A stretch of 64,000 bases of DNA. It comes from Dictyostelium discoideum (lineage: Eukaryota). Where the stretch lies: contig CM000151.3 of assembly GCA_000004695.1 (NCBI GenBank), positions 7,840,001-7,904,000 on the forward strand, written 5' to 3'. The position numbers were made by a program, and so were the translations under genes. Shown here one piece after another: positions 13,513 to 48,240 of the stretch. Position 1 is the stretch's first letter; each line of letters opens with the position of its first letter. The notes beneath the pieces are model-generated. The model worked only from the letters and a program-made list of their open reading frames with translations. It had not been told where the DNA came from and searched no databases.

Positions 13513-14120
13513 TGTCTTAAAGATATTATATTTTTAAAATAAATGTAATATCGATATTTATTTGATTGTAAACCTTTTTTTTATTTTTTTTTTTTTATTT
13601 TTTATTTTTATTTTTATTTTTATTTTTTGTTGTTATTTATTAATTAATTAATTATTTGTAGAAGGTTTAGTAGAGTAAAAAAAACATAAAGAAAGAAAAA
13701 AAGAAAAAAAAAATATTTAAGAAAAAAAAAAATAAAAATAAAAAAAAATAAAAAAAAATAAAAAATAAATTAAAAAAAAATTTTACCTTTTCTTAGAAAT
13801 CTTATTTATTTGTGAAAACAATGATTTATAGTTACATTTTTTTTTTTCTTTTTTTATTATTTTTATTATTATTTTTTATTTATTTTTATTCAAAGTACTA
13901 TTAAATTTATTATAATTCTTCTTTTATTTATTATAATTCTATTAATTAAAAAGAAAAAAAAAAAAAAAAAAAAAATAATAAAAAAAACAAATATATTTTG
14001 ATTAAAAAAAAAAAAAAAAAGAAATTAATTCCAAAACAAATAAAATATTCCCTTTATTTGAAGGACGAAATAGTTAAAAAAAATATATTTTAGAGATGTA
14101 AACACCAAAGAGTTAAAATA

Positions 14121-14164
<44 letters not shown>

Positions 14165-14254
14165 GGAATTTTTTTTTTCAATTTTTTTTTTCTTTTTTTT
14201 TTTTTTTTTTTTAATTTTATTATTATCCCACACATACAAATATACACATACATA

Positions 14255-15280
14255 ATGGCAACATTACCAAAAAGAATTATAAAGGTAATTTTATTTAAAA
14301 ACTTTATATCATTTTTTTTTTTTTTTTTATCGTAAAAAAAAAAACAACAATAGGTTCATTTAAATAATAATAATCTAAAATTAAATATATAAAAATCAAC
14401 CTTAATCACACTTGAATCATTTTAATCAAAAAAATAAAAAAAAATATAAAATATAAATATCATATTTTTCACAATTTAATTGTTATTCTAACTTTTATTT
14501 TTATTTTCATTTTTAAAAGGAAACACAAAGACTTATGACTGAACCTGGTAAGGTTTTTTTTATTTAATAATGTTTCTTTCTGTTTTGATACTAATAGAAT
14601 TTTTTTTTTTTTTTTTAATAAAATAAATAGCTCCAGGTATTAGTGCAACACCAGCAACAGATAATTTTCGTTATTTTAAAGTAGCAATTTCAGGACCATT
14701 AGATTCACCATTTGAAGGTGGTGTTTTTAATTTAGAACTTTTCCTTACAGATGACTATCCAATGTCTGCACCAAAAGTTCGTTTCCTTACTAAAATCTAT
14801 CACCCAAATATTGATAAGTTGGGTAGAATTTGTTTAGATATTTTAAAAGATAAATGGAGTCCAGCTCTTCAAATTAGAACTGTTCTCTTATCAATTCAAG
14901 CTTTATTATCAGCCCCAAATCCAGATGGTATGATTATTATTTTAAAAATAATTTACAATTACTTTATATAATTTATTAATTTATATAATAATTTATATAA
15001 TAATTTATATAATAATAATTAATAATAATTATATATAAAATTTTTGAAAAATTTCTAATTTTTTTTTTTTTTTTTTATAATTTATAGATCCATTAGCAAA
15101 TGATGTAGCTGAACATTGGAAAACCAACGAAAAAGAAGCAATGGCAAGAGGTATGATTAATACAATATATTTATTATAAATCAAAGATATCCTTTATCTA
15201 ACCTTTTTTTTTTTATTATTTAAACTTTAATAGCTAGAGAATGGACCAGATTATACGCTGAAGCACCAGTTGAAAATTAA
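14255..15280 (+). CDS. ube2n: Ubiquitin-conjugating enzyme E2 N (Ubc13/UBE2N orthologue), 5 exons, 154 aa
   Basis: Exons are 14255..14284, 14520..14547, 14631..14927, 15088..15150 and 15234..15280. The spliced product is [23 protein letters not shown]...[87 protein letters not shown]. It is near-identical to human UBE2N. All introns are GTAAGT/GTATGA...AG. Confidence 0.85.
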
Positions 15281-31754: not shown

Positions 31755-31837
31755 TGCAAGAGGCGAGATTCGAACTCGCGAACCGAATGGATGAGATCTT
31801 AAGTCACACGGATTTAACCAGACTTTCCTACCCTTGC
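31755..31837 (-). tRNA. tRNA-Leu (anticodon UAA), type II
   Basis: Minus-strand cloverleaf. Acceptor GCAAGGG/CTCTTGC (one G-U pair). D-stem GGA/TCC with a GGTTAAA loop. Anticodon loop CTTAAGA (T33, TAA at 34-36, A37). Long variable arm. T-arm GCGAG-TTCGAAT-CTCGC. Discriminator A. The anticodon stem has one T-T mismatch and the variable-arm pairing is weak, so function is not guaranteed. Confidence 0.65.
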
Positions 31838-31885
31838 TTTGATGTTTTTAGTGTAATAAAGCTTGTTAGCTTTATAAATATATAT

Positions 31886-32188
31886 CGCGTAGCAAAATTT
31901 TCAAAAAAAAAGCAAAAAATAATCAGATCGAAAAAAACAAACAACAACAACAATCTCTTTTTTTGATTATTTCATTTTTCATATAAAAAAGACTTAAAAA
32001 ACAAATAAATAAATAAATAAACTATTTTAAAAAGCCATCTTTTTACTTTATTGTAATTTATTATTTGTTTCGTTTTGAGAATTTTGCGTAGCAAAATTTT
32101 CAAAAAAAAAGCAAAAAATAATCAGATCGAAAAAAACAAACAACAACAATCTCTTTTTTTGATTATTTCATTTTTCATATAAAAAAGA

Positions 32189-32224
<36 letters not shown>

Positions 32225-33931
32225 GGAACCCAAGTTAATCAGAAAATTTCCAGATTTTTAACTTTTTAAAGAAAAATAAAAAAAATAGAAAGAAAATAAG
32301 ATGAAAATCACAAACAACACCACAAATATTAAGCAACACAAATGCCTACAAAAAATAAGCGAAATTGTGGATAAAACTCAATTAAAAAAAAAACAATTCA
32401 AATACGTCATAAACATCAATCACGAACCAGACGATAAAATAAAAAAAGATTTAGAAAAAAGTTTGGACAAAAAAGATGTTTTAATCAAAAGTAATAATAC
32501 ATTCAAAATTCTCACAGACAGTATTAGTACAGTAATCTATTTTGTAAATATGTTTGATGCAGAATTAAAAGGACAATTTATAACCACTATAAGACCAAAA
32601 AATATGTATACAGATTTTGATTGGTATAAATCACTCACAGAAATAGAATGGGTAATAGAAAATGAAGGATGTAAACTAATTAAATTAGAAATTAAAGGCG
32701 AAACTCTAATTATCAAAACAGTGAAAAGAGTCGTAGAAGAATTTGACACTATCATTGAACTAGACAATCTAACATTAATTGGACACTCCAACAAAGGATG
32801 GAGAGATCAAACCTCATTACCAGAAAATCAAGAAGAAAACAAAAATAAAAAACAATCAGATGAACAACAACCACAATCTACATCAGAACAAATACCAAAA
32901 CAAGGAAAAAGAACAATCATTATCCCACCAATCACATCCTCATCTAATGATAAAACATTTATGGCCCTAGATGATACAGCTCAAAAGGTAATAGAAGCAT
33001 CACTAGAAAACGTAGATGAACTAACAAGAATAGAGAATGAGATCAATACACAATCGATAAACAATCAAGAAATTAAAACAAAATCAGAAAAACCTATCGA
33101 ACCACCATCTCCATACAATACACCAATAAAACAACACGGCGAAACAAAGGGACTAACAACGGAAGAAAAACTTAGAGAGGCAAATGATATCTTCGACTTC
33201 ACCAGCCCAAACACTGATGCAATAAGAAAAATAGAATTCCCACTTTCAATCCCTTCAAATCAATGGTTCTTCTCCTCTCCAATAAAACATATCATGAGTT
33301 TCAGCCCAACCTATGGTACACCATCGAAAATTATCGATTCACCAAGTAAATTGTTAAACACACCAAAAAAGAAACAACAAGACAAAACAAACAAGACCAA
33401 CAAAACACCAGTCAAACCAAAATTGGGTGAATATGGACAAAAAAGCATAAAAACAAAAATGGATGAAGATATAGACAACTTCAACAAGGAAATTCTAAAA
33501 CAAATCAATAAATCAAAAAACCCCACAAACACACAAGACCAACAACACAACGAACAAAGTAAAGATCAGTTAGAAGACAAAATAAACCAGAAACTTCAAA
33601 AGGTAGATAAAAATCTACCCCAAATAAAACTATAAAGAAAAACACAATAAGAATAGGTGTTTGGAACATCCAAGGATCCAACACCATCCAATCTGCCAGC
33701 ATAATAAACACCGTTTTAGACAACAACAAGCTGGACGCAGCACTTCTAACTGAAACAAATATAAAAACAAATAAAATTTACTCAATAAATCAACAATATA
33801 AAAACAAAATAACACACCACGCACCAATTGATAAAACAGGACAAGGGGTGTCACAAATCATCATCAACACCCGCAATAGAACTTCCTAAACATCTCAAAA
33901 AATACAATAATTCACTCAGTACTTTCTATAA

Positions 33932-33989
<58 letters not shown>

Positions 33990-34311
33990 CAAGTTAATCA
34001 GAAAAATAAAAAAGATAGAAAGAAAATAAAATGAAAATCACAAACAACACCACAAATATTAAGCAACACAAATGCCTACAAAAAATAAGCGAAATTGTGG
34101 ATAAAACTCAATTAAAAAAAAAACAATTCAAATACGTCATAAACATCAATCACGAACCAGACGATAAAATAAAAAAAGATTTAGAAAAAAGTTTGGACAA
34201 AAAAGATGTTTTAATCAAAAAGACCCTGTAAAAAAAAAAAATAAATAAAATGAGATCTAGCATCTCAAGGAGAAGCAAATAATAATTGCGTTATCCAATT
34301 CAAAAAAAAAA
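31886..34311 (+). mobile_element. TRE5-A (DRE) non-LTR retrotransposon, ORF2-deleted variant (TRE5-A.2-like), 48 bp upstream of tRNA-Leu, divergently oriented
   Basis: A-module tandem units (199-bp period) at 31886..~32200. B-module cctgggaacccaagttaatcag.. follows. Intact ORF1 is at 32301..33635. ORF2 is reduced to its first 9 and last about 20 codons (junction at 33872/33873). Then come poly(A), B-module tail + ORF1' (first 66 codons) + terminal C-module ...ttgcgttatccaattc + A10. A 15-bp TSD 'tttataaatatatat' lies at 31871..31885 and 34312..34326. The distance from the tRNA 5' end (31837) is 48 bp. Confidence 0.85.
32301..33635 (+). CDS. TRE5-A ORF1 protein (444 aa)
   Basis: Intact ORF. 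It is 98-99% identical to the ORF1 copies at 39581..40915 and 42048..43382. Confidence 0.85.
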   Translation: MKITNNTTNIKQHKCLQKISEIVDKTQLKKKQFKYVININHEPDDKIKKDLEKSLDKKDVLIKSNNTFKILTDSISTVIYFVNMFDAELKGQFITTIRPKNMYTDFDWYKSLTEIEWVIENEGCKLIKLEIKGETLIIKTVKRVVEEFDTIIELDNLTLIGHSNKGWRDQTSLPENQEENKNKKQSDEQQPQSTSEQIPKQGKRTIIIPPITSSSNDKTFMALDDTAQKVIEASLENVDELTRIENEINTQSINNQEIKTKSEKPIEPPSPYNTPIKQHGETKGLTTEEKLREANDIFDFTSPNTDAIRKIEFPLSIPSNQWFFSSPIKHIMSFSPTYGTPSKIIDSPSKLLNTPKKKQQDKTNKTNKTPVKPKLGEYGQKSIKTKMDEDIDNFNKEILKQINKSKNPTNTQDQQHNEQSKDQLEDKINQKLQKVDKNLPQIKL

Positions 34312-34326
34312 TTTATAAATATATAT

Positions 34327-34560
34327 AATTAATAATTATATAATTGAATAATACTTTGTTATCTTTATTTAATATTAGTTTATATTTATAATATTCAATA
34401 TTGTTTATAAAATTATTCTTTAGTATTTATATTATTTATAATGAGTTGACAGTATTATTATTATTATTATTATTATATTATTTAAATGTGTGTCAACTAT
34501 AATTAGTAATGTAATATGCATATTTAATATCTATTAATTTTATAGAGTAACTTTATTACA
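34327..34560 (-). repeat. 3' LTR of the DGLT-A-like element (major part; its first 34 bp lie at 31852..31885, displaced by the TRE5-A.2 insertion)
   Basis: Sequence identity with 36683..36916. Its continuity with 31852..31885 is established by the 15-bp TRE5 TSD 'tttataaatatatat' at 31871..31885 and 34312..34326. Confidence 0.8.
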
Positions 34561-34572
34561 TATCCCCCCCTT

Positions 34573-35183
34573 TTAGTTGAAAATTTTTTTCAATCTTTCA
34601 ATATTGACTACTTTATGATCTCTAAGATTACCCATATCTAATTTGAATGTAACATCGCTAACTTTTTCTTGAACTTTAAAAGGACCTCTCCAAGGTTTAT
34701 AGAATTTCTTTGGACCAATAGAAGTTTGTGAATATGGTGTATGTAAATAAACAAAATCACCTGTTTGAATATTTGTTGGACGACGACCTTTATCATAATT
34801 TGTTTTTTGTAATTCTTGAGCTTTATCGAGATTATTCTTTGTAAACCAAAAGGCACGTTTAAGATTATTATTTACGGATTGTGCATAATTATCAGCGAAA
34901 TCTAATCTTAGTGAATTTGTACATGGATTTCTTATTAATGGTTGAATTGAAGTTATTTGTGATTTAATTATTGAATTCTCTGTTTGATTTAATGATATTG
35001 ATTTTAATGGTAAATTTGATGTTATTGGTGAATCTATTGGTTCTTGGAATAAGAATTCTGGAATATCGTAATCTATTGGTAGTTGTTCTTCAATAGTTGG
35101 ATACGATTTGATTGATAGTATATGATGAGAATTAAAATTTTCAATTAAATGATCAGTATCTGTTAATAATTCTGATTTTGATG

Positions 35184-35217
<34 letters not shown>

Positions 35218-36469
35218 TGAATAATCAGATACTGTTTTAAATATAGTTTGTATACATGGTTGGGTTTCTTTAGATATTAATTTGGTACCAACATTGAATT
35301 CAAGATTCTTAATGATCATTTCTTTAAAATCAATTACTAAATTTAATCCAATTATTGTATCAATGCCAAATATACAATCAATTGATGTATCATTATCTTT
35401 AACAACATTAACTTTAACTCTAGCGAATGCTTTACCTAATTTAATTGTTGTGTTACTTATTCCAATGATTTTGATTTCATTATTTGATGCTGATTTAACA
35501 GAATATTGTTTATTTTCAATCTTTAATTTTAACTTTTTAGCAATACTTTCCCAAACAATAGTAAGTGATGAACCAGTATCAATCAAACCTCTAACATTTT
35601 TATTATTTATTAATAAAGCTGCATTCATACTATCTATTCCGATTGAATTAATTGTACTATTATTGACCATTGTAATTGAATTAGTTCTATTATTGTAATT
35701 GTTATTATTATTTTTATCTTTTGACCAACACTCTTGAATTACATGACCTTTCTTTTTGCAGTATTTACAAAATTTTGTGATTGAATTTACTTGATTTTGT
35801 GGTGCTTTATAAGGGGATGATTGTGGTGAATATGTTTGATTTTTATAAATTGGAGTTGCTAATACTTCAGTTTCAGTAGATTGTTCAGTTTGAGATGTAA
35901 CGTACTGTGGTGATGTTGTATAACCAGATCTAGAACCAAGATACTTTTGAGTTCCAAATTCTTGTAATGTTTTTGCAACCAATTGACCAGTATACATTGA
36001 TCTACCTCTCATACGAATTGAACCATCTTCACAAGACTTTGCAATATCTATTGCTCTTTTTAATGATTTTGGTGCACATTTTGTAATTTCAATACCCAAT
36101 TCAGTACCAACAGCTGAATAAAACAATTGTATTTTAAACTTTTCTGAAATATCAACTGCTGAACATTTTGATAGAAATTTACCAATTAATATATCTAATG
36201 TATTGTATTTATATTCTCCCAACTTTGTTAATTCTGTTAAATCATCACTATCACCAATATCAAAAGCATCTTTAAGATCTTCAATTATCTCCATTGCTGT
36301 TAAGTCTGTATCCAATGTTGCGGCATATTCCAATGCATTGTTTCTTAGTTTTCTAATAATATCAGCTTTCGATATTTCCTCGCCATGAATTAGTAAGAGT
36401 AAGTGTTTGAATTTACGAAATGATAAACCTTTTCCATCGCCCGAAAAAATTATGTTTTCATTATTATTC

Positions 36470-36471
<2 letters not shown>
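34573..36471 (-). CDS. Gag-protease-(delta RT/RNaseH/IN core)-integrase C-terminus fusion ORF of the deleted DGLT-A-like element (632 aa)
   Basis: CCHC knuckle 'KFCKYCKKKGHVIQEC'. Protease active site 'LIDTGSS'. The C-terminus 'KAQELQKTNYDKGRRPTNIQTGDFVYLHT...KKFYKPWRGPFKVQEKVSDVTFKLDMGNLRDHKVVNIERLKK' is typical of a Ty3/gypsy integrase C-terminal domain. No RT (YxDD) or RNase H is present, yet the frame is retained across the deletion. Confidence 0.7.
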
Positions 36472-36539
<68 letters not shown>

Positions 36540-36635
36540 TATTAAATTAAATTTAATCTAATGTACAATTTTAATTGATTGAATAATTTGATAACTTTAT
36601 ATTTATAGTATATTTTTTTTTTTTTTTTTGAAAGA

Positions 36636-36646
36636 CGATGTCGCCA
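36636..36646 (-). other. Primer-binding site of the LTR element, complementary to the 3' end (+CCA) of tRNA-Ser(AGA)
   Basis: The plus strand reads cgatgtcgcca, which is the acceptor 3' strand CGATGTC + discriminator G + CCA of the tRNA-Ser gene at 38701..38782. On the element's sense (minus) strand this is TGGCGACATCG, 2 nt after the LTR end ...TTACA. Confidence 0.75.
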
Positions 36647-36648
36647 AA

Positions 36649-36916
36649 TGTAATAAAGCTTGTTAGCTTTATAAATATATATAATTAATAATTATATAAT
36701 TGAATAATACTTTGTTATCTTTATTTAATATTAGTTTATATTTATAATATTCAATATTGTTTATAAAATTATTCTTTAGTATTTATATTATTTATAATGA
36801 GTTGACAGTATTATTATTATTATTATTATTATATTATTTAAATGTGTGTCAACTATAATTAGTAATGTAATATGCATATTTAATATCTATTAATTTTATA
36901 GAGTAACTTTATTACA
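36649..36916 (-). repeat. 5' LTR of the DGLT-A-like element (268 bp)
   Basis: Near-identical to 34327..34560 plus 31852..31885. Confidence 0.8.
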
Positions 36917-36949
36917 TTAGAATTAATTTACGTAATAAAACCTCTTTTG

Positions 36950-37070
36950 TAAGTTTGGAAACAAATCATCCCGTTCGATCTGATAAGTAAATCGACCTCA
37001 GGCCTTCCAAGTACTCTGGTTGGAGACAACAGGGGAACATAGGGTGCTGTATACTTTATTTACTCCGATT

Positions 37071-37104
<34 letters not shown>
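36950..37104 (+). pseudogene. 5'-truncated 5S rRNA sequence fused to a TRE5-B/C-type 3' terminus + A32 (chimeric retropseudogene)
   Basis: About 108 nt, taagtttggaaacaaatcatcccgttcgatctgataagtaaatcgacctcaggccttccaagtactctggttggagacaacaggggaacatagggtgctgtatactt. It carries the universal 5S helix IV/V features GTACT.GG.TGGAGAC and GGGAA.A.GGGTGCTGTA. It is directly followed by 'atttactccgattc' + A32. Compare the 3' tail 'gcgttactccattc'+An of the TRE5-like fragment ending at about 38155. It is flanked by aacctcttttg at 36939..36949 and 37103..37113. Confidence 0.65.
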
Positions 37105-37106
<2 letters not shown>

Positions 37107-37115
37107 CTTTTGCAT

Positions 37116-37199
37116 GACCCTGTAAAAAAAAAAAAAAAATAAAATAAAATGAGATCTAGAATCTCAAGGACAAGCAAATAATAATTGCGTTATCCAATT

Positions 37200-37231
<32 letters not shown>
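37116..37231 (+). mobile_element. Extreme 5'-truncated TRE5-A copy (terminal C-module only, about 85 nt + A31)
   Basis: tgaccctgt-A16-taaaataaaatgagatctagaatctcaaggacaagcaaataataattgcgttatccaattc + A31. This matches the 3' end of every TRE5-A copy in the window. It is flanked by cctcttttgca at 37105..37115 and 37232..37242. Confidence 0.7.
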
Positions 37232-37234
<3 letters not shown>

Positions 37235-37496
37235 CTTTTGCATTTATTACAATTATCTTAAATTTATGTCAAATAATATTTCAAATTAATAATTAATTAA
37301 TTTATTATAAATATAAAAAAATTATTTAATTTTAATTAGGCTGTTAATTTCATTGTTAAACGATAAAATCTATTAAATAAAAATATAAATAAATAAATTA
37401 ATATATAAAGTGTTTTAAAGATTATTAAATATAAAATAAAGATTAAATTTTAAATATAAATAAAAACTATAATATTTGTAAAATAATAATTACAAA

Positions 37497-37955
37497 AGAC
37501 CACTTTCGTTACATTTAAAGGTATAGATCGGAAATAAGATTACATTCAAGATAAAAGTGGAGCTTCCAAAATAACGTGGAGTGGAAATATTCAACAAACT
37601 GGATATTCCACTAACAGCCAACGCCATAGCTATAATATGTGAAAACATTTGGAAAAGAAGAAACAAAAGAATACACGAAGAAATCACTCTCAAAAACTTA
37701 AGAAAAGAAAAACCCAAACATCTTTTAATGAAAACGCAAGAAGCTGCCTGGGAAAGAACCAAAAAAACATATATAAATTAATAAGACAATCAAAAAAAGC
37801 AACAAAGATTGAAGCATCGAAAAAATTCAAATCCATCATCACCTCACAACTCGAAATATTCAGCAAAAACTAGAACTCTCCTCTATACATAGCAACACTA
37901 ATACCAAACCTAAACAAATATATAACATCACTCAACACACTCTATACCCTCAACA

Positions 37956-38018
<63 letters not shown>

Positions 38019-38155
38019 TAATACCACCCAAAAAAAAAAAAAAAAAAAAAAAAAGGGGACCATTGTAAAATTTAAACCTACTATAATGAAATGAGAAGAA
38101 TCTCTAGAAGAAGCAACTCACAATTGCGTTACTCCATTCAAAAAAAAAATTGTTC
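37497..38155 (+). mobile_element. Degenerate 5'-truncated TRE5-B/C-like non-LTR element 3' end (ORF2 C-terminus remnant + 3'UTR + poly(A))
   Basis: The frameshifted coding remnant 'ITWSGNIQQTGYSTNSQRHSYNM/ICENIWKRRNKRIHEEITLKN..KTQEAAWERTKK' is homologous to the TRE5-A ORF2 end 'HTWNVKILNHLQIALVANLIAIIFDKIWHKRNKLIHDEKEI..KTQRAAWDRTQ'. There is an A70 run at about 37968-38005. The terminal motif is 'aatgagaagaatctctagaagaagcaactcacaattgcgttactccattc' + A10. Confidence 0.55.
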
Positions 38156-38700
38156 GGAAATGATTTTTTTATATTTGATATTCTAACACTAAAGTTAGAA
38201 TTTTTAAAAAATCCTCGAAACCAACAAATTAAAGAGAGAAAAACTCAAAAAAATAAAAATAAATAATTTTTTATTTATTTTATTAAAGTTTTCTCCAGGT
38301 TTCTTTTATATAAGTGACATAATAGAAGGTTATTTATATTAATTTGTATTAATTTATATTAATTTATTATCTCTTCAATTGAAATAAATTGATTTTCAAA
38401 TAAACATTAAGATTTTTTTTTTTTATTGATGCTGTAAAGAGTGGACCAAAACCAATTATTTTTTTTATTTTTCAGTTTTTAATTTTTGTTTTTTTAGGCC
38501 AAAAAGCTTCCAACTAAACTAAATTAATAATTATTTGAAATTAAATTCGTAGTCTTATAATGTTTAATTAATTAATTATTATTCTAATTCTTTTACTATG
38601 ATTAATATTAAAAACTTTAAATAATGAAATTTCTAAACAGAACTTTGAAGTTCTCGAGATATCCGAAGTTCGGAAGGGGCCAATTTTTATAAAAAGTTAT

Positions 38701-38782
38701 CGACATCGGCAGGGTTCGAACCTGCGCCCCCGAAGGGATCTGATTTCTAGTCAGACGCATTAGACCACTTTGCTACGATGTC
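38701..38782 (-). tRNA. tRNA-Ser (anticodon AGA), type II
   Basis: Acceptor GACATCG/CGATGTC. D-stem GCA/TGC. Perfect anticodon stem TCTGA/TCAGA with loop CTAGAAA (AGA at 34-36). Long variable arm TCCCTTCGGGGGC (CCC-TTCG-GGG hairpin). T-arm GCAGG-TTCGAAC-CCTGC. Discriminator G. Confidence 0.85.
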
Positions 38783-38829
38783 TTTGAAGTTTAGAATGAA
38801 CGTCGTATCTCAAATTGTATGAAATTTAA

Positions 38830-39454
38830 GATTATTTCATTTTTCATATAAAAAAGACTTAAAAAACAAATAAATAAATAAATAAACTATTTTAAAAAGC
38901 CATCTTTTTACTTTATTGTAATTTATTATTTGTTTCGTTTTGAGAATTTTGCGTAGCAAAATTTTCAAAAAAAAAGCAAAAAATAATCAGATCGAAAAAA
39001 ACAAACAACAACAACAATCTCTTTTTTTGATTATTTCATTTTTCATATAAAAAAGACTTAAAAAACAAATAAATAAATAAATAAACTATTTTAAAAAGCC
39101 ATCTTTTTACTTTATTGTAATTTATTATTTGTTTCGTTTTGAGAATTTTGCGTAGCAAAATTTTCAAAAAAAAAGCAAAAAATAATCAGATCGAAAAAAA
39201 CAAACAACAACAACAATCTCTTTTTTTGATTATTTCATTTTTCATATAAAAAAGACTTAAAAAACAAATAAATAAATAAATAAACTATTTTAAAAAGCCA
39301 TCTTTTTACTTTATTGTAATTTATTATTTGTTTCGTTTTGAGAATTTTGCGTAGCAAAATTTTCAAAAAAAAAGCAAAAAATAATCAGATCGAAAAAAAC
39401 AAACAACAACAACAATCTCTTTTTTTGATTATTTCATTTTTCATATAAAAAAGA

Positions 39455-39505
<51 letters not shown>

Positions 39506-41211
39506 GGAACCAAGTTAATTAGAAAATTTCCAGATTTTTAACTTTTTAAAGAAAAATAAAAAAGATAGAAAGAAAATAAAATGAAAATCACAAACAACAC
39601 CACAAATATTAAGCAACACAAATGCCTACAAAAAATAAGCGAAATTGTGGATAAAACTCAATTAAAAAAAAAACAATTCAAATACGTCATAAACATCAAT
39701 CACGAACCAGACGATAAAATAAAAAAAGATTTAGAAAAAAGTTTGGACAAAAAAGATGTTTTAATCAAAAGTAATAATACATTCAAAATTCTCACAGACA
39801 GTATTAGTACAGTAATCTATTTTGTAAATATGTTTGATGCAGAATTAAAAGGACAATTTATAACCACTATAAGACCAAAAAATATGTATACAGATTTTGA
39901 TTGGTATAAATCACTCACAGAAATAGAATGGGTAATAGAAAATGAAGGATGTAAACTAATTAAATCAGAAATTAAAGGCGAAACTCTAATTATCAAAACA
40001 GTGAAAAGAGTCGTAGAAGAATTTGACACTATCATTGAACTAGACAATCTAACATTAATTGGACACTCCAACAAAGGATGGAGAGATCAAACCTCATTAC
40101 CAGAAAATCAAGAAGAAAACAAAAATAAAAAACAATCAGATGAACAACAACCACAATCTACATCAGAACAAATACCAAAACAAGGAAAAAGAACAATCAT
40201 TATCCCACCAATCACATCCTCATCTAATGATAAAACATTTATGGCCCTAGATGATACAGCTCAAAAGGTAATAGAAGCATCACTAGAAAACGTAGATGAA
40301 CTAACAAGAATAGAGAATGAGATCAATACACAATCGATAAACAATCAAGAAATTAAAACAAAATCAGAAAAACCTATCGAACCACCATCTCCATACAATA
40401 CACCAATAAAACAACACGGCGAAACAAAGGGACTAACAACGGAAGAAAAACTTAGAGAAGCAAATGATATCTTCGACTTCACCAGCCCAAACACTGATGC
40501 AATAAGAAAAATAGAATTCCCACTTTCAATCCCTTCAAATCAATGGTTCTTCTCCTCTCCAATAAAACATATCATGAGTTTCAGCCCAACCTATGGTACA
40601 CCATCGAAAATTATCGATTCACCAAGTAAATTGTTAAACACACCAAAAAAGAAACAACAAGACAAAACAAACAAGACCAACAAAACACCAGTCAAACCAA
40701 AATTGGGTGAATATGGACAAAAAAGCATAAAAACAAAAATGGATGAAGATATAGACAACTTCAACAAGGAAATTCTAAAACAAATCAATAAATCAAAAAA
40801 CCCCACAAACACACAAGACCAACAACACAATGAACAAAGTAAAGATCAGTTAGAAGACAAAATAAACCAGAAACTTCAAAAGGTAGATAAAAATCTACCC
40901 CAAATAAAACTATAAAGAAAAACACAATAAGAATAGGTGTTTGGAACGTCCAAGGATCCAACACCATCCAATCTGCCAGCATAATAAACACCGTTTTAGA
41001 CAACAACAAGCTGGACGCAGCACTTCTAACTGAAACAAATATAAAAACAAATAAAATTTACTCAATAAATCAACAATATAAAAACAAAATAACACACCAC
41101 GCACCAATTGATAAAACAGGACAAGGGGTGTCACAAATCATCATCAACACCCGCAATAGAACTTCCTAAACATCTCAAAAAATACAATAATTCACTCAGT
41201 ACTTTCTATAA

Positions 41212-41267
<56 letters not shown>

Positions 41268-41594
41268 CAAGTTAATCAGAAAAATAAAAAAGATAGAAAG
41301 AAAATAAAATGAAAATCACAAACAACACCACAAATATTAAGCAACACAAATGCCTACAAAAAATAAGCGAAATTGTGGATAAAACTCAATTAAAAAAAAA
41401 AAAACAATTCAAATACGTCATAAACATCAATCACGAACCAGACGATAAAATAAAAAAAGATTTAGAAAAAAGTTTGGACAAAAAAGATGTTTTAATCAAA
41501 AAGACCCTGTAAAAAAAAAAAAAAAATAAAATGAGATCTAGCATCTCAAGGAGAAGCAAATAATAATTGCGTTATCCAATTCAAAAAAAAAAAA
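38830..41594 (+). mobile_element. TRE5-A.2-like (ORF2-deleted) copy #2, 48 bp upstream of tRNA-Ser
   Basis: Same architecture and the same ORF2 deletion junction as copy #1. The A-module array has about 3.3 units (38830..~39455). ORF1 is at 39581..40915, ORF1' at 41309..41512, the C-module tail + A12 ends at 41594. The TSD 'ttgtatgaaatttaa' is at 38815..38829 and 41595..41609. The distance to the tRNA 5' end (38782) is 48 bp. Confidence 0.85.
39581..40915 (+). CDS. TRE5-A ORF1 protein (444 aa), copy #2
   Basis: Intact ORF, near-identical to 32301..33635. Confidence 0.85.
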   Translation: MKITNNTTNIKQHKCLQKISEIVDKTQLKKKQFKYVININHEPDDKIKKDLEKSLDKKDVLIKSNNTFKILTDSISTVIYFVNMFDAELKGQFITTIRPKNMYTDFDWYKSLTEIEWVIENEGCKLIKSEIKGETLIIKTVKRVVEEFDTIIELDNLTLIGHSNKGWRDQTSLPENQEENKNKKQSDEQQPQSTSEQIPKQGKRTIIIPPITSSSNDKTFMALDDTAQKVIEASLENVDELTRIENEINTQSINNQEIKTKSEKPIEPPSPYNTPIKQHGETKGLTTEEKLREANDIFDFTSPNTDAIRKIEFPLSIPSNQWFFSSPIKHIMSFSPTYGTPSKIIDSPSKLLNTPKKKQQDKTNKTNKTPVKPKLGEYGQKSIKTKMDEDIDNFNKEILKQINKSKNPTNTQDQQHNEQSKDQLEDKINQKLQKVDKNLPQIKL

Positions 41595-41904
41595 TTGTAT
41601 GAAATTTAAATTTTCAAAAAAAAGCAAAAAATAATCAGATCGAAAAAAAACAAACAACAACAACAATCTCTTTTTTTGATTATTTCATTTTTCATATAAA
41701 AAAGACTTAAAAAACAAATAAATAAATAAATAAACTATCTTAAAAAGCCATCTTTTTACTTTATTGTAATTTATTATTTGTTTCGTTTTGAGAATTTTGC
41801 GTAGCAAAATTTTCAAAAAAAAGCAAAAAATAATCAGATCGAAAAAAAACAAACAACAACAACAATCTCTTTTTTTGATTATTTCATTTTTCATATAAAA
41901 AAGA

Positions 41905-41971
<67 letters not shown>

Positions 41972-42047
41972 GGAACCCAAGTTAATCAGAAAATTTCCAG
42001 ATTTTTAACTTTTTAAAGAAAAATATAAAAAATAGAAAGAAAATAAA

Positions 42048-43382
42048 ATGAAAATCACAAACAACACCACAAATATTAAGCAACACAAATGCCTACAAAA
42101 AATAAGCGAAATTGTGGATAAAACTCAATTAAAAAAAAAACAATTCAAATACGTCATAAACATCAATCACGAACCAGACGATAAAATAAAAAAAGATTTA
42201 GAAAAAAGTTTGGACAAAAAAGATGTTTTAATCAAAAGTAATAATACATTCAAAATTCTCACAGACAGTATTAGTACAGTAATCTATTTTGTAAATATGT
42301 TCGATGCAGAATTAAAAGGACAATTTATAACCACTCTAAGACCAAAAAATATGTATACGGATTTCGATTGGTATAAATCACTCACAGAAATAGAATGGGT
42401 AATAGAAAATGAAGGATGTAAACTAATTAAATCTGAAATTAAAGGCGAAACTCTAATTATCAAAACAGTGAAAAGAGTCGTAGAAGAATATGACACTATC
42501 ATTGAACTAGACAATCTAACATTAATTGGTCACTCCAACAAAGGATGGAGAGATCAAACCTCATTACCAGAAAATCAAGAAGAAAACAAAAATAAAAAAC
42601 AATCAGATGAACAACAACCACAATCTACATCAGAACAAATACCAAAACAAGGAAAAAGAACAATCATTATCCCACCAATCACCTCCTCATCTAATGATAA
42701 AACATTTATGGCCCTAGATGATACAGCTCAAAAGGTAATAGATGCATCACTAGAAAACGTAGATGAACTAACAAGAATAGAGAATGAGATCAATACCCAA
42801 TCGATAAACAATCAAGAAATTAAAACAAAATCAGAAAAACCTATTGAACCACCATCTCCATACAATACACCAATAAAACAACACGGCGAAACAAAGAGAC
42901 TAACAACGGAAGAAAAACTTAGAGAGGTAAATGATATCTTCGACTTCACCAGCCCAAACACTGATGCAATAAGAAAAATAGAATTCCCACTTTCAATCCC
43001 TTCAAATCAATGGTTCTTCTCCTCTCCAATAAAACATATCATGAGTTTCAGCCCAACCTATGGTACACCATCGAAAATTATCGATTCACCAAGTAAATTG
43101 TTAAACACACCAAAAAACAAACAACAAGACAAAACAAACAGGACCAACAAAACACCAGTCAAACCAAAATTGGGTGAATATGGACAAAAAAGCATAAAAA
43201 CAAAAATGGATGAAGATATAGACAACTTCAACAAGGAAATTCTAAAACAAATCAGTAAATCAAAAAACCCCACAAACACACAAGACCAACAACACAACGA
43301 ACAAAGTAAAGATCAGTTAGAAGACAAAATAAACCAGAAACTTCAAAAGGTAGATAAAAATCTACCCCAAATAAAACTATAA
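42048..43382 (+). CDS. TRE5-A ORF1 protein (444 aa), copy #3
   Basis: Intact. It has a few substitutions relative to copies 1 and 2 (e.g. TTLRPKN, EEYDTI). Confidence 0.85.
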   Translation: MKITNNTTNIKQHKCLQKISEIVDKTQLKKKQFKYVININHEPDDKIKKDLEKSLDKKDVLIKSNNTFKILTDSISTVIYFVNMFDAELKGQFITTLRPKNMYTDFDWYKSLTEIEWVIENEGCKLIKSEIKGETLIIKTVKRVVEEYDTIIELDNLTLIGHSNKGWRDQTSLPENQEENKNKKQSDEQQPQSTSEQIPKQGKRTIIIPPITSSSNDKTFMALDDTAQKVIDASLENVDELTRIENEINTQSINNQEIKTKSEKPIEPPSPYNTPIKQHGETKRLTTEEKLREVNDIFDFTSPNTDAIRKIEFPLSIPSNQWFFSSPIKHIMSFSPTYGTPSKIIDSPSKLLNTPKNKQQDKTNRTNKTPVKPKLGEYGQKSIKTKMDEDIDNFNKEILKQISKSKNPTNTQDQQHNEQSKDQLEDKINQKLQKVDKNLPQIKL

Positions 43383-43594
43383 AGAAAAACACAATAAGAA
43401 TAGGTGTTTGGAACGTCCAAGGATCCAACACCATCCAATCTGCCAGCATAATAAACACCGTATTAGACAACAACAAGCTGGACGCAGCACTTCTAACTGA
43501 AACAAATATAAAAACAAATAAAATTTACTCAATAAATCAACAATATAAAAACAAAATAACACACCACGCACCAATTGATAAAACAGGACAAGGG

Positions 43595-46500
43595 GTGTCA
43601 CAAATCATCATCAACACCCAAATAAAAACAACAACAAAAACAATAAACGAAAGAATTATATCTTCCGAATGGATGATTGCAAAAACACAGATCAAATGCA
43701 CAACCATTTATGCCCCAGCAAAGTCAAACGAAAGACATGAATGGTATAAGGAAAATCTCACAGAAGAAATACTACACAGCGATATTATAACTGGAGACTT
43801 CAATGTAGACTGTTCAGTGGATAATAACCTTAACAAATATATTAAAACAATCTTCGACGAATTCGAATTTACAGAAATTAAGAATGGAATCACATTTCCA
43901 AGAAACAAATCAACCATCGATAGGGTCTTTGTCTCAAAGAAGATACTCCATCTAAACCCAATAGTTACTACTAAGGAAATCAAATTAAAATCTGATCACA
44001 ACATGGTAATCATTGAATTAAAAATACCAGAATACGAGCAACAAAAGAAAGGAGAAAGACTATGGAGACAAAACCTAGAAACTCTCAAAATGAATTCAAC
44101 CAGCCTCAAAATTAATAAAACAATTAAATACTACAATAAAAAATTCGAAGAGAACACCAGCAAATGGTACAAATTAAACATTTGCGAACAATGGTTGAAA
44201 CTAAAAGATGAAATAAAGAAACTGTCAATTAATATAGAAATTAGAGAAAGCAATAAAACCAAAAACAAACTAAAAGAACTCGCAGAAAAACTCGAAACAG
44301 CCAAAGATTCAAGAGCAATCTTCCTTAAAGAAGAGATCAACAATATTCTAAAGGAACAAGTAAGAATAAAACAAGCAAACCAAACCAACACCCACATCAA
44401 CAACAAAGAAACACCATCAAAATACTTAACCAGAAGGTTAAAAGTCCAAAGAAAGACAAATGAAATCCCTCAAATTCTAGATCCAAGCAACAATTGTTTG
44501 GTAACAAAAAACGAGGATATCCTCGAAGTAGCAAGAAGATATTACGAGAACCTGTACCAGAAGAGAGAATGCAACGAAGACACTCACCACGAACTCCTAA
44601 AAACATTCAATAAAAGGATTGATCAAAAGATATTGGACGAAATTAATCAACCAATAGAAGGATATGAAATCAGACTAGGCATTGAAAAAATACAAGAAGG
44701 AAAAGCACCTGGTAAAGATGGACTCCTTCCAACATTTTACAAAAACCACATTAATGAAATTCTACCAATAATATCAAAACTATACAATCACTTCTGGAAC
44801 ACAACAATCCCAAAGGACTTCAAACAAGGGATATTGATTACTATATATAAAAACAAAGGAGACCCAAACAACCTGGATAATTATAGACCAATAACACTTC
44901 TAAATGTCGATTACAAAATCTATTCGAAAATAATCAACAATAGGATCCTGAAGTTCTTAAACAAAATAATCTCACCATTCCAAACTGGATTCGTACCAAG
45001 AAGACTACTGCACGATAACATCATCACCTTAAACTCAACAATAGAAATAATAAAACGAGAGATTAACACAAAAGAGGATATGGAACCAATCATAACATTT
45101 TATGATTTTGAAAAAGCATTCGATTCAATCTCACATAACGCCATTCTACGTACTCTTGCACATCTAAAACTACCACTCAAAATGGTCCTCACAATAATGA
45201 ACTTACTCAATGAATCAGAAACATCAGTGTACATCAATAACTCATTATCTAAAAGCTTTACATCAAAAAGAGGAACCAAACAAGGTGATCCTATCTCTCC
45301 CACTATCTTCGCATTAGTGGTTGAATGCATGGCAACTACTATAATAAATGACCGCTGCATCAATGGTGTAACCAAAGAAACCATTAAAATACTACAGTTC
45401 GCCGATGATACAGCAACAATAGCATACAACTTTATGGACCATTTCCTCATGAATGAATGGATCAAGAAGTTTTGCCAAGCAACCAGCGCAAAAATAAACC
45501 AAACCAAATGCTCGTGTATCACTTTCAAATGGAACACCAGAACGCTATACACCGTCATAAAATCAAACGAAAGGTACCTCGGCTTTGACTTCAACAATAA
45601 GGGTATCAAATCCAAAATCAATACAATCTCAGACAACATCAGAGCTAAACTAGTAACATGGAACTCAACTTCATCAACCTATATGGGCAGACTCATAATG
45701 GCAAAAACATATGCACTATCTCAGTTAACGTTCCACACTTACATCAACACCACACCACAACACAATAGTATTGAAAATAACATCGTAAAATTCGTTTTCA
45801 ACACAAAATCTAAAAACTCTCTTTCACTACAAAGAAGACAAAACAACTATATCAATGGTGGCCTAAACTTATGGAACCTGAAGACAAGAGAACTAGCACA
45901 GAAAGCATGGTTATTCGAAAGATACCTCCACCAAAGAGTAAGTAACACTCCTAGTTCATATATAAAACTGTGGGAAGAGGAACTCAAAAACAACAACAAC
46001 AACAAAACAACAACAAAACAAAATCAACTACAACTACACTGGCAATGCAAGCAAGCATGGACCCAATTAAAAACTCCACAAAATAAACAAACACACTACG
46101 AACACCTCCCAAAATTAAAAAAAATATACGAAGATATGATGACAACTCAATCTCCTGAACACAACAAATTCATACCAACTCCTGGCCAAAAAGAAATAAT
46201 GACCAAAATTAATAGCAAACACCTTCCATTTAAAGAAATCAAAAAAATAATAAACATGAAAGGTAGAGATCTATTATGGAGATACACACTGAAAGCACTA
46301 CCAAAAATATACAACATGCCATGCCAACAGTGTGGGGAAGATGAGACCTCAGAACATATATTCTTCAACTGCAAAGCCCACATCAAAAACACACAAGAAA
46401 TCTTCAACTACACCCTAACTAAGTCTGGACACACCACTCACACCTGGAATGTGAAGATTTTAAACCATCTACAAATTGCACTAGTAGCCAATTTAATAGC

Positions 46501-46816
46501 TATTATATTCGATAAAATCTGGCACAAAAGAAATAAACTCATTCACGATGAAAAAGAAATAATAATTCACAGACAACAAGTCATACGTGAACTAATTAAA
46601 ACACAAAGAGCTGCATGGGACAGGACACAAGCGGTTATAAACAAAACATTAAGAATCAAATCAAAACAACGGCCAGAAGAACAAAATAAATTAGACTCAC
46701 TAATCTCGCTAAAGCTATTACAATTTAGCAGACAATGGAACTCACCTCTTCACGCAATAGAACTTCCTAAACATCTCAAAAAATACAATAATTCACTCAG
46801 TACTTTCTATAAATAA
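43595..46816 (+). CDS. TRE5-A ORF2 protein (1073 aa): apurinic/apyrimidinic-type endonuclease + reverse transcriptase + C-terminal Cys/His motif
   Basis: The N-terminal APE-like domain reads ...ITGDFNVDCS...KSDHNMVIIEL. RT motifs include 'YRPITLLNVDYKIYSKII', 'AFDSISHNAIL' and 'LQFADDTATIA' (a FADD box = YxDD). The C-terminus 'CQQCGEDETSEHIFFNCKAH' is an HC-type zinc knuckle. The frame is intact. Confidence 0.85.
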   Translation: MSQIIINTQIKTTTKTINERIISSEWMIAKTQIKCTTIYAPAKSNERHEWYKENLTEEILHSDIITGDFNVDCSVDNNLNKYIKTIFDEFEFTEIKNGITFPRNKSTIDRVFVSKKILHLNPIVTTKEIKLKSDHNMVIIELKIPEYEQQKKGERLWRQNLETLKMNSTSLKINKTIKYYNKKFEENTSKWYKLNICEQWLKLKDEIKKLSINIEIRESNKTKNKLKELAEKLETAKDSRAIFLKEEINNILKEQVRIKQANQTNTHINNKETPSKYLTRRLKVQRKTNEIPQILDPSNNCLVTKNEDILEVARRYYENLYQKRECNEDTHHELLKTFNKRIDQKILDEINQPIEGYEIRLGIEKIQEGKAPGKDGLLPTFYKNHINEILPIISKLYNHFWNTTIPKDFKQGILITIYKNKGDPNNLDNYRPITLLNVDYKIYSKIINNRILKFLNKIISPFQTGFVPRRLLHDNIITLNSTIEIIKREINTKEDMEPIITFYDFEKAFDSISHNAILRTLAHLKLPLKMVLTIMNLLNESETSVYINNSLSKSFTSKRGTKQGDPISPTIFALVVECMATTIINDRCINGVTKETIKILQFADDTATIAYNFMDHFLMNEWIKKFCQATSAKINQTKCSCITFKWNTRTLYTVIKSNERYLGFDFNNKGIKSKINTISDNIRAKLVTWNSTSSTYMGRLIMAKTYALSQLTFHTYINTTPQHNSIENNIVKFVFNTKSKNSLSLQRRQNNYINGGLNLWNLKTRELAQKAWLFERYLHQRVSNTPSSYIKLWEEELKNNNNNKTTTKQNQLQLHWQCKQAWTQLKTPQNKQTHYEHLPKLKKIYEDMMTTQSPEHNKFIPTPGQKEIMTKINSKHLPFKEIKKIINMKGRDLLWRYTLKALPKIYNMPCQQCGEDETSEHIFFNCKAHIKNTQEIFNYTLTKSGHTTHTWNVKILNHLQIALVANLIAIIFDKIWHKRNKLIHDEKEIIIHRQQVIRELIKTQRAAWDRTQAVINKTLRIKSKQRPEEQNKLDSLISLKLLQFSRQWNSPLHAIELPKHLKKYNNSLSTFYK

Positions 46817-46887
<71 letters not shown>

Positions 46888-47311
46888 GGAACCCAAGTTA
46901 ATCAGAAAATTTCCAGATTTTTAACTTTTTAAAGAAAAATATAAAAAATAGAAAGAAAATAAAATGAAAATCACAAACAACACCACAAATATTAAGCAAC
47001 ACAAATGCCTACAAAAAATAAGCGAAATTGTGGATAAAACTCAATTAAAAAAAAAACAATTCAAATACGTCATAAACATCAATCACGAACCAGACGATAA
47101 AATAAAAAAAGATTTAGAAAAAAGTTTGGACAAAAAAGATGTTTTAATCAAAAGTAATAATACAATTCAAAATTCGAAACAAAAAAAAAAAAAAAAAAAA
47201 AAAAGTAAACTAACCCCTCTTTTAGAGACCCTGTAAAAAAAAAAAAAAAAATAAAATAAAATGAGATCTAACATCTCAAGGAGAAGCAAATAATAATTGC
47301 GTTATCCAATT

Positions 47312-47345
<34 letters not shown>

Positions 47346-47368
47346 TATGAAATTTAAATTGTAAAAAA

Positions 47369-47530
47369 CTATAAATAAAATGAGATCTAGCATCTCAAGG
47401 AGAAACAACCAATAATTACGTTATCCAAAAAAAAAACAAAAAAATTATATGAAATTTAACATTTTAATGAGATCTAGCATCTCAAGGAGAAGCAACAAAT
47501 AATTGCGTTATCCAATTCAAAAATAAAAAA
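47369..47530 (+). mobile_element. Two older TRE5-A tail-only fragments (C-module 3' about 50-60 nt + oligo-A), each followed by a degenerate copy of the same target motif
   Basis: 47369..~47436 reads ctataaataaaatgagatctagcatctcaaggagaaacaaccaataattacgttatcc+A10, then 'attatatgaaatttaac'. 47466..~47530 reads aatgagatctagcatctcaaggagaagcaacaaataattgcgttatccaattc+A, then 'atctatgaaatactta'. Confidence 0.6.
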
Positions 47531-48240
47531 ATCTATGAAATACTTATAATATTTTGTATACTTGTGTGACCCTTGAACACACATAAATAATTAATAATAA
47601 ATTATAAATAATATTATATCTCTATATAATATTATATGTAATAAAGTTTTATTTATAAGTTTTGTTTGTGCACAATTTGGAATAAAACAACAACGAAATA
47701 TTTTTATTTTATTTTACTATTTATACTAAAATTAATTTTACTAAAGAAACCGTTGGTAAAATTTCTGAGAATAAAGTAAGAATATTGTATTTGTTAACGT
47801 CTTTTCAGTTACAGACTATTTCCATATTTGTATTTTACCAGGGATAAAAACTTTATAAATTAATTTATGTCCCTTAATTATTCTCGATTATTACAAAGAT
47901 TCAAATTCATCACGTAGTCAGGCCCTTTTTCTTTCAGAATAATTTATTCATACATAAAATATACTTACCTCTTCTAATTGTATTTAATATAATAAGATTT
48001 ATTTGATCACAACTTTATTTTTATCTTATTTTTACTATTTATGCGATGTATTTTCTGAAGGCCTAATAACAAATAGTAGAGAGGATTTAGAAAAATCCCA
48101 AACATCATCTCCATCAGCTTGAAAGATTTAGTTAACACTGGAACTCTCCCCTCCTCACAGTATCAAACCTTATACAATAAATCACGTCCCTAAACACTCT
48201 CTTTAAAAAAAAATTAAATAAATAAAAAAAAAAAAAAAAA
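47531..48240 (+). mobile_element. Possible degenerate retroelement 3' region (less AT-rich than its surroundings) ending in a TRE5-B/C-like terminal motif + oligo(A)
   Basis: 48125..48200 'ctggaactctcccctcctcacagtatcaaaccttatacaataaatcac..ctaaacactctcttt'+A-rich resembles 37862..37930 'ctagaactctcctctatacatagcaacactaataccaaacctaaacaaatatataacatcactcaacacactcta' of the TRE5-B/C-like fragment. No intact ORF is present. Confidence 0.3.

Follow-up and report, generated by a model that had tools for sequence, protein, structure and literature searches.

Can the reverse transcriptase of a Dictyostelium TRE5 retrotransposon copy a cellular RNA into the genome? The genome of Dictyostelium discoideum is described as having no processed pseudogenes, which has been attributed to strict recognition of the C-module by the TRE5-A proteins (Siol et al., PMC3159450). 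The question is raised by a locus in a 64,000-nt stretch of D. discoideum DNA (contig CM000151.3, positions 7,840,001 to 7,904,000; called the window below), where a 5S rRNA fragment is joined to a short linker and a poly(A) tail between direct repeats, on the upstream side of a tRNA-Leu gene. We call this unit the 5S chimera. Coordinates are positions in the window, which is AT-rich (22% G+C), unless a locus with an L-number is named. Our analysis indicates that the unit is probably a chimeric retropseudogene made in one event of target-primed reverse transcription (TPRT) by TRE5-family machinery, which would have started on TRE5 RNA and jumped to the 3′ end of 5S rRNA. The features on which this reading is based, including the target-site duplications (TSDs), are collected in Table 1.

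Table 1 Coordinates of the 5S chimera, its target and the neighbouring insertions in the window
Feature	Position	Strand	Remarks
TSD copy 1, AACCTCTTTTG	36939..36949	+	could extend to AAAACCTCTTTTG from 36937
5S rRNA retro-copy, 5′-truncated	36950..37057	+	Rfam 46.8 bits; alignment to L001 5S gene
Linker ATTTACTCCGATTC	37058..37071	+	last 12 nt, TTACTCCGATTC (37060-37071), are the TRE5-type 3′ terminus
Pure poly(A) tail of the chimera	37072..37101	+	28-32 A, depending on TSD start
TSD copy 2, AACCTCTTTTGCAT	37102..37115	+	serves the 5S chimera as 3′ TSD (11 nt) and the TRE5-A tail as 5′ TSD (14 nt)
TRE5-A C-module tail, 3′-terminal 85 nt (GACCCTGT...GCGTTATCCAATTC) plus about A29-31	37116..37229	+	96% identity
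TSD copy 3, AACCTCTTTTGCAT	37230..37243	+	runs into unique flank TTATTACAATT, colinear with L003
TRE5-C-like element, divergent, 5′-truncated	37514..38149	+	source of the comparison terminus GCGTTACTCCATTC-A10
tRNA-Leu(UAA) gene, integration target	31755..31837	-	ARAGORN; Rfam tRNA 49.1 bits
DGLT-A-like long terminal repeat (LTR) retrotransposon, internally deleted (TGTAAT...TTACA)	31852..36916	-	later insertion
TRE5-A.2, splitting the left LTR of the DGLT-A-like element	31887-34311		49 nt from tRNA-Leu; 15-nt TSD TTTATAAATATATAT

A scan of the window against Rfam gave a 5S_rRNA match at 36936-37055 (+) with a score of 46.8 bits, the gathering score being 38. Every pair of helix I in this match was broken on the 5′ side, where the 5′ strand consists of non-5S target sequence, and the true 5S homology was found to cover 36952-37057, which corresponds to 5S nt 16-119 plus TT. 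For comparison we used L001, an intact dictyostelid 5S gene at 2073-2191 of a metagenome contig, which was obtained by a degenerate-pattern scan. The same scan also gave an unrelated eukaryotic 5S gene (L002), while the degenerate pattern had no match in GTDB and an exact 5S 37-mer had none in the metagenome or GTDB collections. Alignment of 36952-37057 to nt 16-121 of the L001 gene-plus-flank showed identity at 103 of 106 positions, and the fragment aligned through the exact 3′ end, which bore out the 5′-truncated but otherwise full 5S body of the original prediction. Missing from the copy are nt 1 to about 14-15, but the last nucleotide of the RNA (nt 119) is kept and is followed by 2-3 T, and the internal control region (nt ~50-97) is intact. 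The complete RNA of 119-120 nt, the helix I and the RNA polymerase III (Pol III) terminator that mark a functional 5S gene are not all present, and the score of 46.8 bits compares with 95.9 bits for L001 in Rfam; the copy is a dead, reverse-transcribed pseudogene.

A blastn comparison was also made with a presumed D. discoideum 5S reference sequence, and the copy was identical to it at 102 of 104 positions. The two differences from this presumed reference were G18T and C28A, and the remaining ~90 nt of the copy match it perfectly. Both substitutions, together with the uncertain first 2-3 nt, fall within the 5′-most 15 nt of the fragment. Such clustering on the 5′ side could be due to errors that the reverse transcriptase made as synthesis came to its end, or the donor RNA could have been a variant.

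On the plus strand the order is 5S (36950-37057), then TTACTCCGATTC, then A30-32. The uninterrupted A-run at 37072-37103 has 32 A, as originally counted, and its last 2-4 A are common to the run and the repeat that follows. The 12 nt in front of this run were compared with the 3′ termini of the TRE5 elements. Every TRE5-A copy, whether in the window or at the 16 further loci, terminates in GCGTTATCCAATTC-A(n), and two similar tails, in L003 and L005, terminate in GCGTTATTCCATTC. In the divergent element downstream of the chimera, GCGTTACTCCATTC finishes at 38139 and A10 runs to 38149, a correction of the terminus at about 38155 that had been proposed earlier. The C-terminus of its second open reading frame (ORF2) was 49% identical to that of TRE5-A ORF2 in a tblastn comparison, and its C-module-like tail was ~71% identical to TRE5-A by alignment. 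We call this element TRE5-C-like because the C-module marks TRE5-A and TRE5-C but not TRE5-B (PMC3159450).

Comparison with these termini showed that the linker segment TTACTCCGATTC is one inserted G away from TTACTCCATTC, the TRE5-C-like terminus at 38128-38139, whereas it differs from the TRE5-A terminus TTATCCAATTC by one insertion and one substitution. The background of sequences no more than one edit from TTACTCCATTC is 7 sites in 128 kb (both strands), or ~5e-5 per position, and it is therefore very unlikely that chance alone placed a TRE5-type terminus exactly where the poly(A) begins. The linker had been predicted to match the divergent terminus rather than that of TRE5-A; it is indeed nearer to the former, although the match is not exact. 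A donor of the TRE5-C-like lineage may tentatively be proposed from this comparison, and the choice turns on one nucleotide (1 edit vs 2 over 12 nt), so the statement that the linker identifies the TRE5 subfamily went too far.

The 11-mer AACCTCTTTTG has exact copies at 36939, 37102 and 37230, that is, 3 copies vs 0.05 expected in 64 kb, and none of 100 shuffles reached 3. An 11-bp direct repeat bracketing the whole unit had been noticed before, and this is correct for the copies at 36939 and 37102, but the third copy and the TRE5-A tail in front of it were overlooked. The body of this tail (37116-37200) is followed by A31 and is 96% identical to two other TRE5-A tails in the window (34230-34311 and 41511-41594). 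One target site thus contains two adjacent inserts that end in poly(A), the 5S chimera and the TRE5-A tail, and each of them has a duplication of its own. The tail is expected to be the older of the two, because new inserts land at a fixed distance from the tRNA gene and the tRNA-proximal one should be the younger.

Two other ways to account for the middle repeat were considered and rejected. It could be internal TRE5-A sequence, since the TRE5-A.1 C-module carries CCCCTCTTTTAGAG before ACCCTGT; however, it agrees with the target flank at 14/14 nt and with TRE5-A.1 at only 8 nt. One complex event producing both inserts is disfavoured by the intervening TSD copy and by stacks of insertions with the same TSD at a tRNA-Ser gene in the window. 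Upstream of this tRNA-Ser(AGA) gene (38701-38782) there is a TRE5-A stack (38783-47550) whose copies are parted by the 15-nt TSD TTGTATGAAATTTAA, found at 38815, 41595 and 47343 and in degenerate copies further out. The stack consists of a partial A-module/TRE5-A.2, a full-length TRE5-A.1 and two short degenerate tails, the most degenerate being furthest from the tRNA gene. Because stacking on one TSD has occurred independently at tRNA-Ser, re-use of a single target site is normal here.

A locus without the insertions was available for comparison. L003 (GCA_054859355.1, JBTAPG010000054.1) comes from a divergent assembly labelled D. discoideum and shares ~92% identity with the window over 13 kb. 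The orthologous site in L003 is colinear and uninterrupted, with one copy of ACCTTTTTCGCTTTCATTACAA (ACCTTTTTCGCTTTCATTAC) and no 5S, TRE5 or LTR sequence, which means that 36950-37243 is derived and that the repeats are target-site duplications. It had been asked whether the repeats might instead belong to a larger rDNA-derived segment. No ribosomal DNA (rDNA) was found beyond the 5S fragment, and this, with the uninterrupted single-copy site of L003, answers the question in favour of a TSD. In L003 (reverse-complement 13265-15200) we also observed that a deletion of 7 nt affects the orthologue of tRNA-Leu, for which ARAGORN makes no call, that a partial duplicate of the 5′ half of tRNA-Leu lies ~500 bp away, and that there is a small inversion relative to ~38200-38260 of the window. 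Exact-protein look-ups with the neighbouring 833-aa ORF, the ATPase exon, the ORF of the LTR element, one copy of TRE5-A ORF1 (42048-43382) and ORF2 gave no match to the locus in other strains, and a protein search with the neighbouring ATPase exon returned no D. discoideum entry. Two other look-ups with TRE5-A ORF1 gave 16 loci from GCA_054883475.1, and the chimera locus was not among them. Among the TRE5-A copies of the window are some whose ORF1 recurs unchanged in a D. discoideum assembly, and the loci from this assembly (GCA_054883475.1) carry Dictyostelium-specific small nucleolar RNAs (snoRNAs).

The chimera is now separated from its target by later arrivals. The predicted DGLT-A insertion between chimera and tRNA-Leu was confirmed as a DGLT-A-like element, which starts 14 nt upstream of tRNA-Leu and has the TSD TTAG at 31848-51 and 36917-20. 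Its LTR segments 34312-34561 and 36668-36917 are 100% identical over the 250 bp compared, and its ORF at 34573-36471(-) holds only an Asp protease domain and the C-terminus of the integrase. With the LTR element and TRE5-A.2 removed, the pre-insertion site reads from tRNA-Leu through TTTGATGTTTTTAG to AATTAATTTACGTAATAAAACCTCTTTTGCATTTATTAC. In this reconstructed site the 5′ junction of the 5S copy lies 43 nt, and that of the TRE5-A tail 46 nt, from tRNA-Leu +1, and both 5′ ends face the tRNA gene. TRE5-A integration shows strict orientation specificity, in that the 5′ end faces the tRNA gene, and 80% of insertions are at 47+/-3 bp in a range of 23-181 bp (Spaller et al., PMC5391098). The 43 nt of the 5S chimera is just outside this modal window and inside the range. 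The earlier description, ~47 bp upstream of tRNA-Leu and exactly at the TRE5 distance, was therefore right in orientation and range and slightly off in the distance itself. Other TRE5 inserts in the window are at similar positions: distance and TSD length are 49 nt and 15 nt for TRE5-A.2, 46 nt and 14 nt for the TRE5-A tail, and 47 nt and 15 nt for the tRNA-Ser stack. With its poly(A) distal, its 5′ end towards the tRNA gene, a distance of ~50 bp and a TSD within ~11-16 nt, the 5S chimera has the properties of a TPRT insertion of the TRE5 family. It shares the target position, the orientation, the TSD length class (11-15 nt), the poly(A) and the same-site stacking with ordinary 5′-truncated TRE5-A insertions, and it differs from them in having a cellular RNA, and not TRE5 sequence, as its body.

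From the anatomy, TSDs, position and orientation that we observed, and from the empty site in the relative, we infer a template switch, an order of events and a donor subfamily as follows. The TRE5 endonuclease would have nicked the bottom strand ~30 nt upstream of tRNA-Leu, at its usual TFIIIB-guided position, and a TRE5 RNA, for which the closest match is TRE5-C-like, would have primed reverse transcription at its poly(A). After the last 10-14 nt of the TRE5 RNA had been copied, the enzyme would have made a jump to a 5S rRNA, landing at its 3′ end with 2-3 terminal U, copied ~105 nt of it and stopped prematurely ~15 nt before the 5S 5′ end; the cDNA would then have been joined to the upstream target end by end-joining. 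A second-strand nick 11 nt downstream, followed by repair, would give the duplication of AACCTCTTTTG. If the chimera hit the tRNA-proximal TSD copy of the older, severely 5′-truncated TRE5-A insertion, three copies of the repeat would result, and the DGLT-A-like LTR element and then TRE5-A.2 would have arrived later between chimera and tRNA gene. TRE5-A cannot retrotranspose without a stem-loop that is located in the last 54 nt of its C-module (PMC3159450), and a start on genuine TRE5 RNA followed by a switch is therefore the expected route for such a stringent long interspersed nuclear element (LINE). The stringent L2 and RTE LINEs yield small-RNA pseudogenes only as template-switch chimeras with the LINE terminus (Doucet et al., PMC4476161).

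Several observations weigh against this reading. Only 12-14 nt are TRE5-derived, and they are identical to no terminus seen, having one extra G; no exact donor terminus for the 12-nt segment was found in the sequence examined, the nearest being that of the TRE5-C-like element with one insertion. Between the 5S end and TTACTCC there are 3-5 nt (TTTAT) that are assigned to neither part. The 5S part is 5′-truncated, unlike the full-length U6 in the classic L1 chimeras, and it is only through the L001 flank, as a proxy, that a read-through origin can be excluded for part of the linker. Finally, the locus is the only one known: no second 5S chimera was found in ~370 kb of TRE5-rich sequence (the 64-kb window and ~307 kb of GCA_054883475.1 loci), and an Rfam scan of ~269 kb of TRE5-A-flanking loci gave no further small-RNA chimera, with only tRNAs and two snoRNAs detected. 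The original claim of direct evidence that a TRE5 reverse transcriptase mobilises cellular RNAs in trans is too strong for a single locus.

The 5S piece might have been joined without a jump of the polymerase, if a 12-nt TRE5 insertion with its poly(A) was made and end-joining captured a stray 5S cDNA or RNA at the 5′ junction. Non-LTR insertions are known for 5′ junctions that contain nucleotides either non-templated or captured (PMC5391098), a filler of 7-8 nt is present at a TRE5-A tail junction in L014 (13822-13829), and the truncation of the 5S piece at its 5′ end would suit this explanation. However, the piece starts exactly at the mature or primary 3′ end of the 5S RNA and is in sense orientation, which is predicted by a jump and would be unlikely for a random capture. 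We consider such a capture quite unlikely, and it differs from the TPRT switch only in which enzyme joined the pieces.

Another explanation, to which we give very little weight, is that the locus is a secondary, 5′-truncated daughter of a 5S-headed, TRE5-tailed element resembling a short interspersed nuclear element (SINE), transcribed from the internal Pol III promoter of 5S and mobilised by TRE5. A 5S head, a LINE-derived tail and a poly(A) or A-rich end are the architecture of the 5S-derived SINEs (SINE3 etc.), and the internal control region is preserved in our copy, as described above. The known 5S-derived SINEs, however, are multi-copy elements in which the 5S-derived promoter region is complete and the LINE tail is long, and no such feature was seen here. 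Their LINE tail carries the recognition signal, whereas the tail of the chimera (12-14 nt) is too short for the C-module stem-loop (PMC3159450). The window and the ~307 kb of TRE5-A-flanking loci of the D. discoideum assembly contain no other 5S fragment, and the Dictyostelium transposon literature that could be searched mentions no 5S/TRE5 family.

The linker could also be a natural 5S trailer, in which case a read-through, polyadenylated 5S precursor would have been copied directly by a TRE5 or other reverse transcriptase and no switch would be needed. It is established that Pol III reads through and that aberrant 5S precursors are oligoadenylated in the nucleus, and the first bases past the 5S end (TTTA) match the flank TTTTAAT of L001. 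This explanation predicts GTATACTTTATTTACTCCGATTC downstream of 5S in the D. discoideum rDNA palindrome (AY171066), and a flank reading CTTTATTT in the rDNA would fix the position of the 5S-linker junction exactly. In L001, whose 5S gene is near-identical, the 3′ flank reads GTATACTTTTAATATTTTTTGTCTTC / TTTTAATATTTTTTGTCTTC / TTTTAATATTTTTTGTCTTCATTTATG, and ACTCCGATTC is absent from the next 270 nt. The linker is thus not the natural flank in the closest 5S gene obtained, which serves as a proxy for D. discoideum, and only the first TTTA could be 5S trailer; the prediction that the linker is not 5S sequence stands to the extent that the gene of a close relative can support it. A direct copy would further make the TRE5-type terminus at the poly(A) junction a coincidence of the small frequency given above, and TRE5-A does not mobilise RNAs without its C-module (PMC3159450). 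We therefore regard a direct copy of a read-through precursor as having a very slim chance. Transfer of an rDNA fragment at the DNA level next to a pre-existing A-rich tract can practically be dismissed: the rDNA palindrome is present in ~100 copies per nucleus and TRE5-A integrates beside its 5S gene (PMC5391098), but there is no rDNA flank on either side, the fragment stops at the RNA 3′ terminus, the pure poly(A) and exact TSD are RNA-mediated signatures, and the TRE5 at the 5S gene sits upstream, head-to-head, so that its 3′ end never adjoins the 5S 3′ end.

The template switch in TPRT that we favour has parallels in other organisms. Mammalian U6/L1 chimeric retropseudogenes were reportedly described by Buzdin in 2002 and 2003 and by Garcia-Perez in 2007. 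They consist of a small Pol III RNA in sense orientation on the 5′ side, with its exact 3′ end and U tail, followed by a LINE 3′ terminus and poly(A), with one TSD around the whole unit at the preferred target of the LINE, and their accepted cause is a template switch in TPRT (PMC4476161). The 5S chimera likewise has a sense small RNA 5′ of a LINE terminus, a junction at the RNA 3′ end, one TSD and a LINE target site. It differs in that the acceptor is 5S and not U6, that nt 1 to ~14-15 are gone (truncation by ~15 nt vs the consistently full-length U6), that the LINE part is only 12-14 nt, that TRE5 has stringent 3′-end recognition and targets tRNA genes, and that the host is an amoebozoan. 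The full-length small RNA is typical of U6 chimeras and is not required by the mechanism.

Mammalian 5S/L1 chimeras also combine 5S with a LINE 3′ end in a TSD-flanked insertion, but in a recent survey (bioRxiv 10.1101/2025.02.02.635956) they were mostly antisense, with the junction at 5S nt 1 and truncation from the 3′ side at nt 46 or 90, and were attributed to twin priming. Our copy is the opposite, being in sense with the 3′ end kept and the 5′ end lost. The comparison with human L1-generated U6/5S chimeras drawn in the original prediction thus applies to the U6/L1 type and not to the mostly antisense, truncated 5S/L1 type. A further parallel is given by the chimeras of stringent LINEs (L2 and RTE in vertebrates, and MGL/WEIRD/Mg-SINE in Magnaporthe grisea, PMC2104539), where a LINE that recognizes its own 3′ UTR (untranslated region) gives rise to pseudogenes of cellular RNAs only in the form of chimeras bearing its 3′ terminus, and which show that the phenomenon extends beyond L1 and beyond animals; these occur in tens of copies with recurrent switch sites, whereas here there is a single copy and the switch is unusually close to the poly(A).

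The TRE5 elements around the locus gave further observations on early termination. In addition to the tail at 37116-37229, another very short TRE5-A tail is found at 47353-47530, and the frequency of such tails suggests that cDNA synthesis often ends early, which would give an opportunity for a switch. TRE5-A tails start exactly at GACCCTGT at two independent loci (window 37116; L014 13830), and the same start is the breakpoint of the 72-bp BC-module deletion of TRE5-A.2 (e.g. window 34217, 41503). This point may be a preferred stop or switch point of the reverse transcriptase. The filler at the L014 junction, ATCCAAT(G), resembles the TRE5-A terminus. Identical-scoring tRNA gene copies are interleaved with TRE5-A in L014 (7942-8022, 9477-9557, 13694-13774) and L015 (7391/9496) of GCA_054883475.1, which could come from segmental duplication or from recombination between elements.

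The 3′ UTRs of TRE5 elements also have a common layout. The TRE5-A.1 C-module always has ...CAATTCAAAATTCGAAAC-A(n)-GTAAACTAACCCCTCTTTTAGAG before ACCCTGT, and an A-run, a subfamily-specific spacer of 12-23 nt and a (G)ACCCTGT core were found in TRE5-A.1, in another TRE5 variant and in the TRE5-C-like element (window 47167-47322 and 38030-38139; L012 17700-17870; L013, L015, L016, L017; L007 8340-8530). The part of TRE5-A.1 before the A-run resembles the terminus of an element in decay (AATACAATTC-AAAA). The 8-nt CCTCTTTT is common to the spacer GTAAACTAACCCCTCTTTTAGAG and the target site at tRNA-Leu, at 3-4 nt from the same breakpoint, and simple microhomology at the 5′ junction fails to reproduce the sequence observed. 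The tandem at our locus, a retro-copy ending in ...ATTC-A32 followed by a target-site copy and an 87-nt C-module core, mirrors this layout. One speculation, which we think quite improbable, is that TRE5 3′ UTRs are built by read-through of insertions stacked in the same site, and that a 5S head with a functional C-module core would here be a proto-SINE at birth; if true, it would be the first SINE-like element in Dictyostelium.

The 5S chimera is a single dead locus with no evident consequence for the host, and the literature searched, the coverage of which was incomplete, gave no earlier account of a Dictyostelium pseudogene of the chimeric or processed kind. The kind of element is already known from elsewhere, and its value lies in being a clean, mechanistically informative exception to the published generalization that the D. 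discoideum genome lacks processed pseudogenes. It would be the expected exception, in which the enzyme can copy a cellular RNA once it has started on its own transcript. LINE template switching is known in vertebrates and a fungus, and the 5S chimera would add Amoebozoa.

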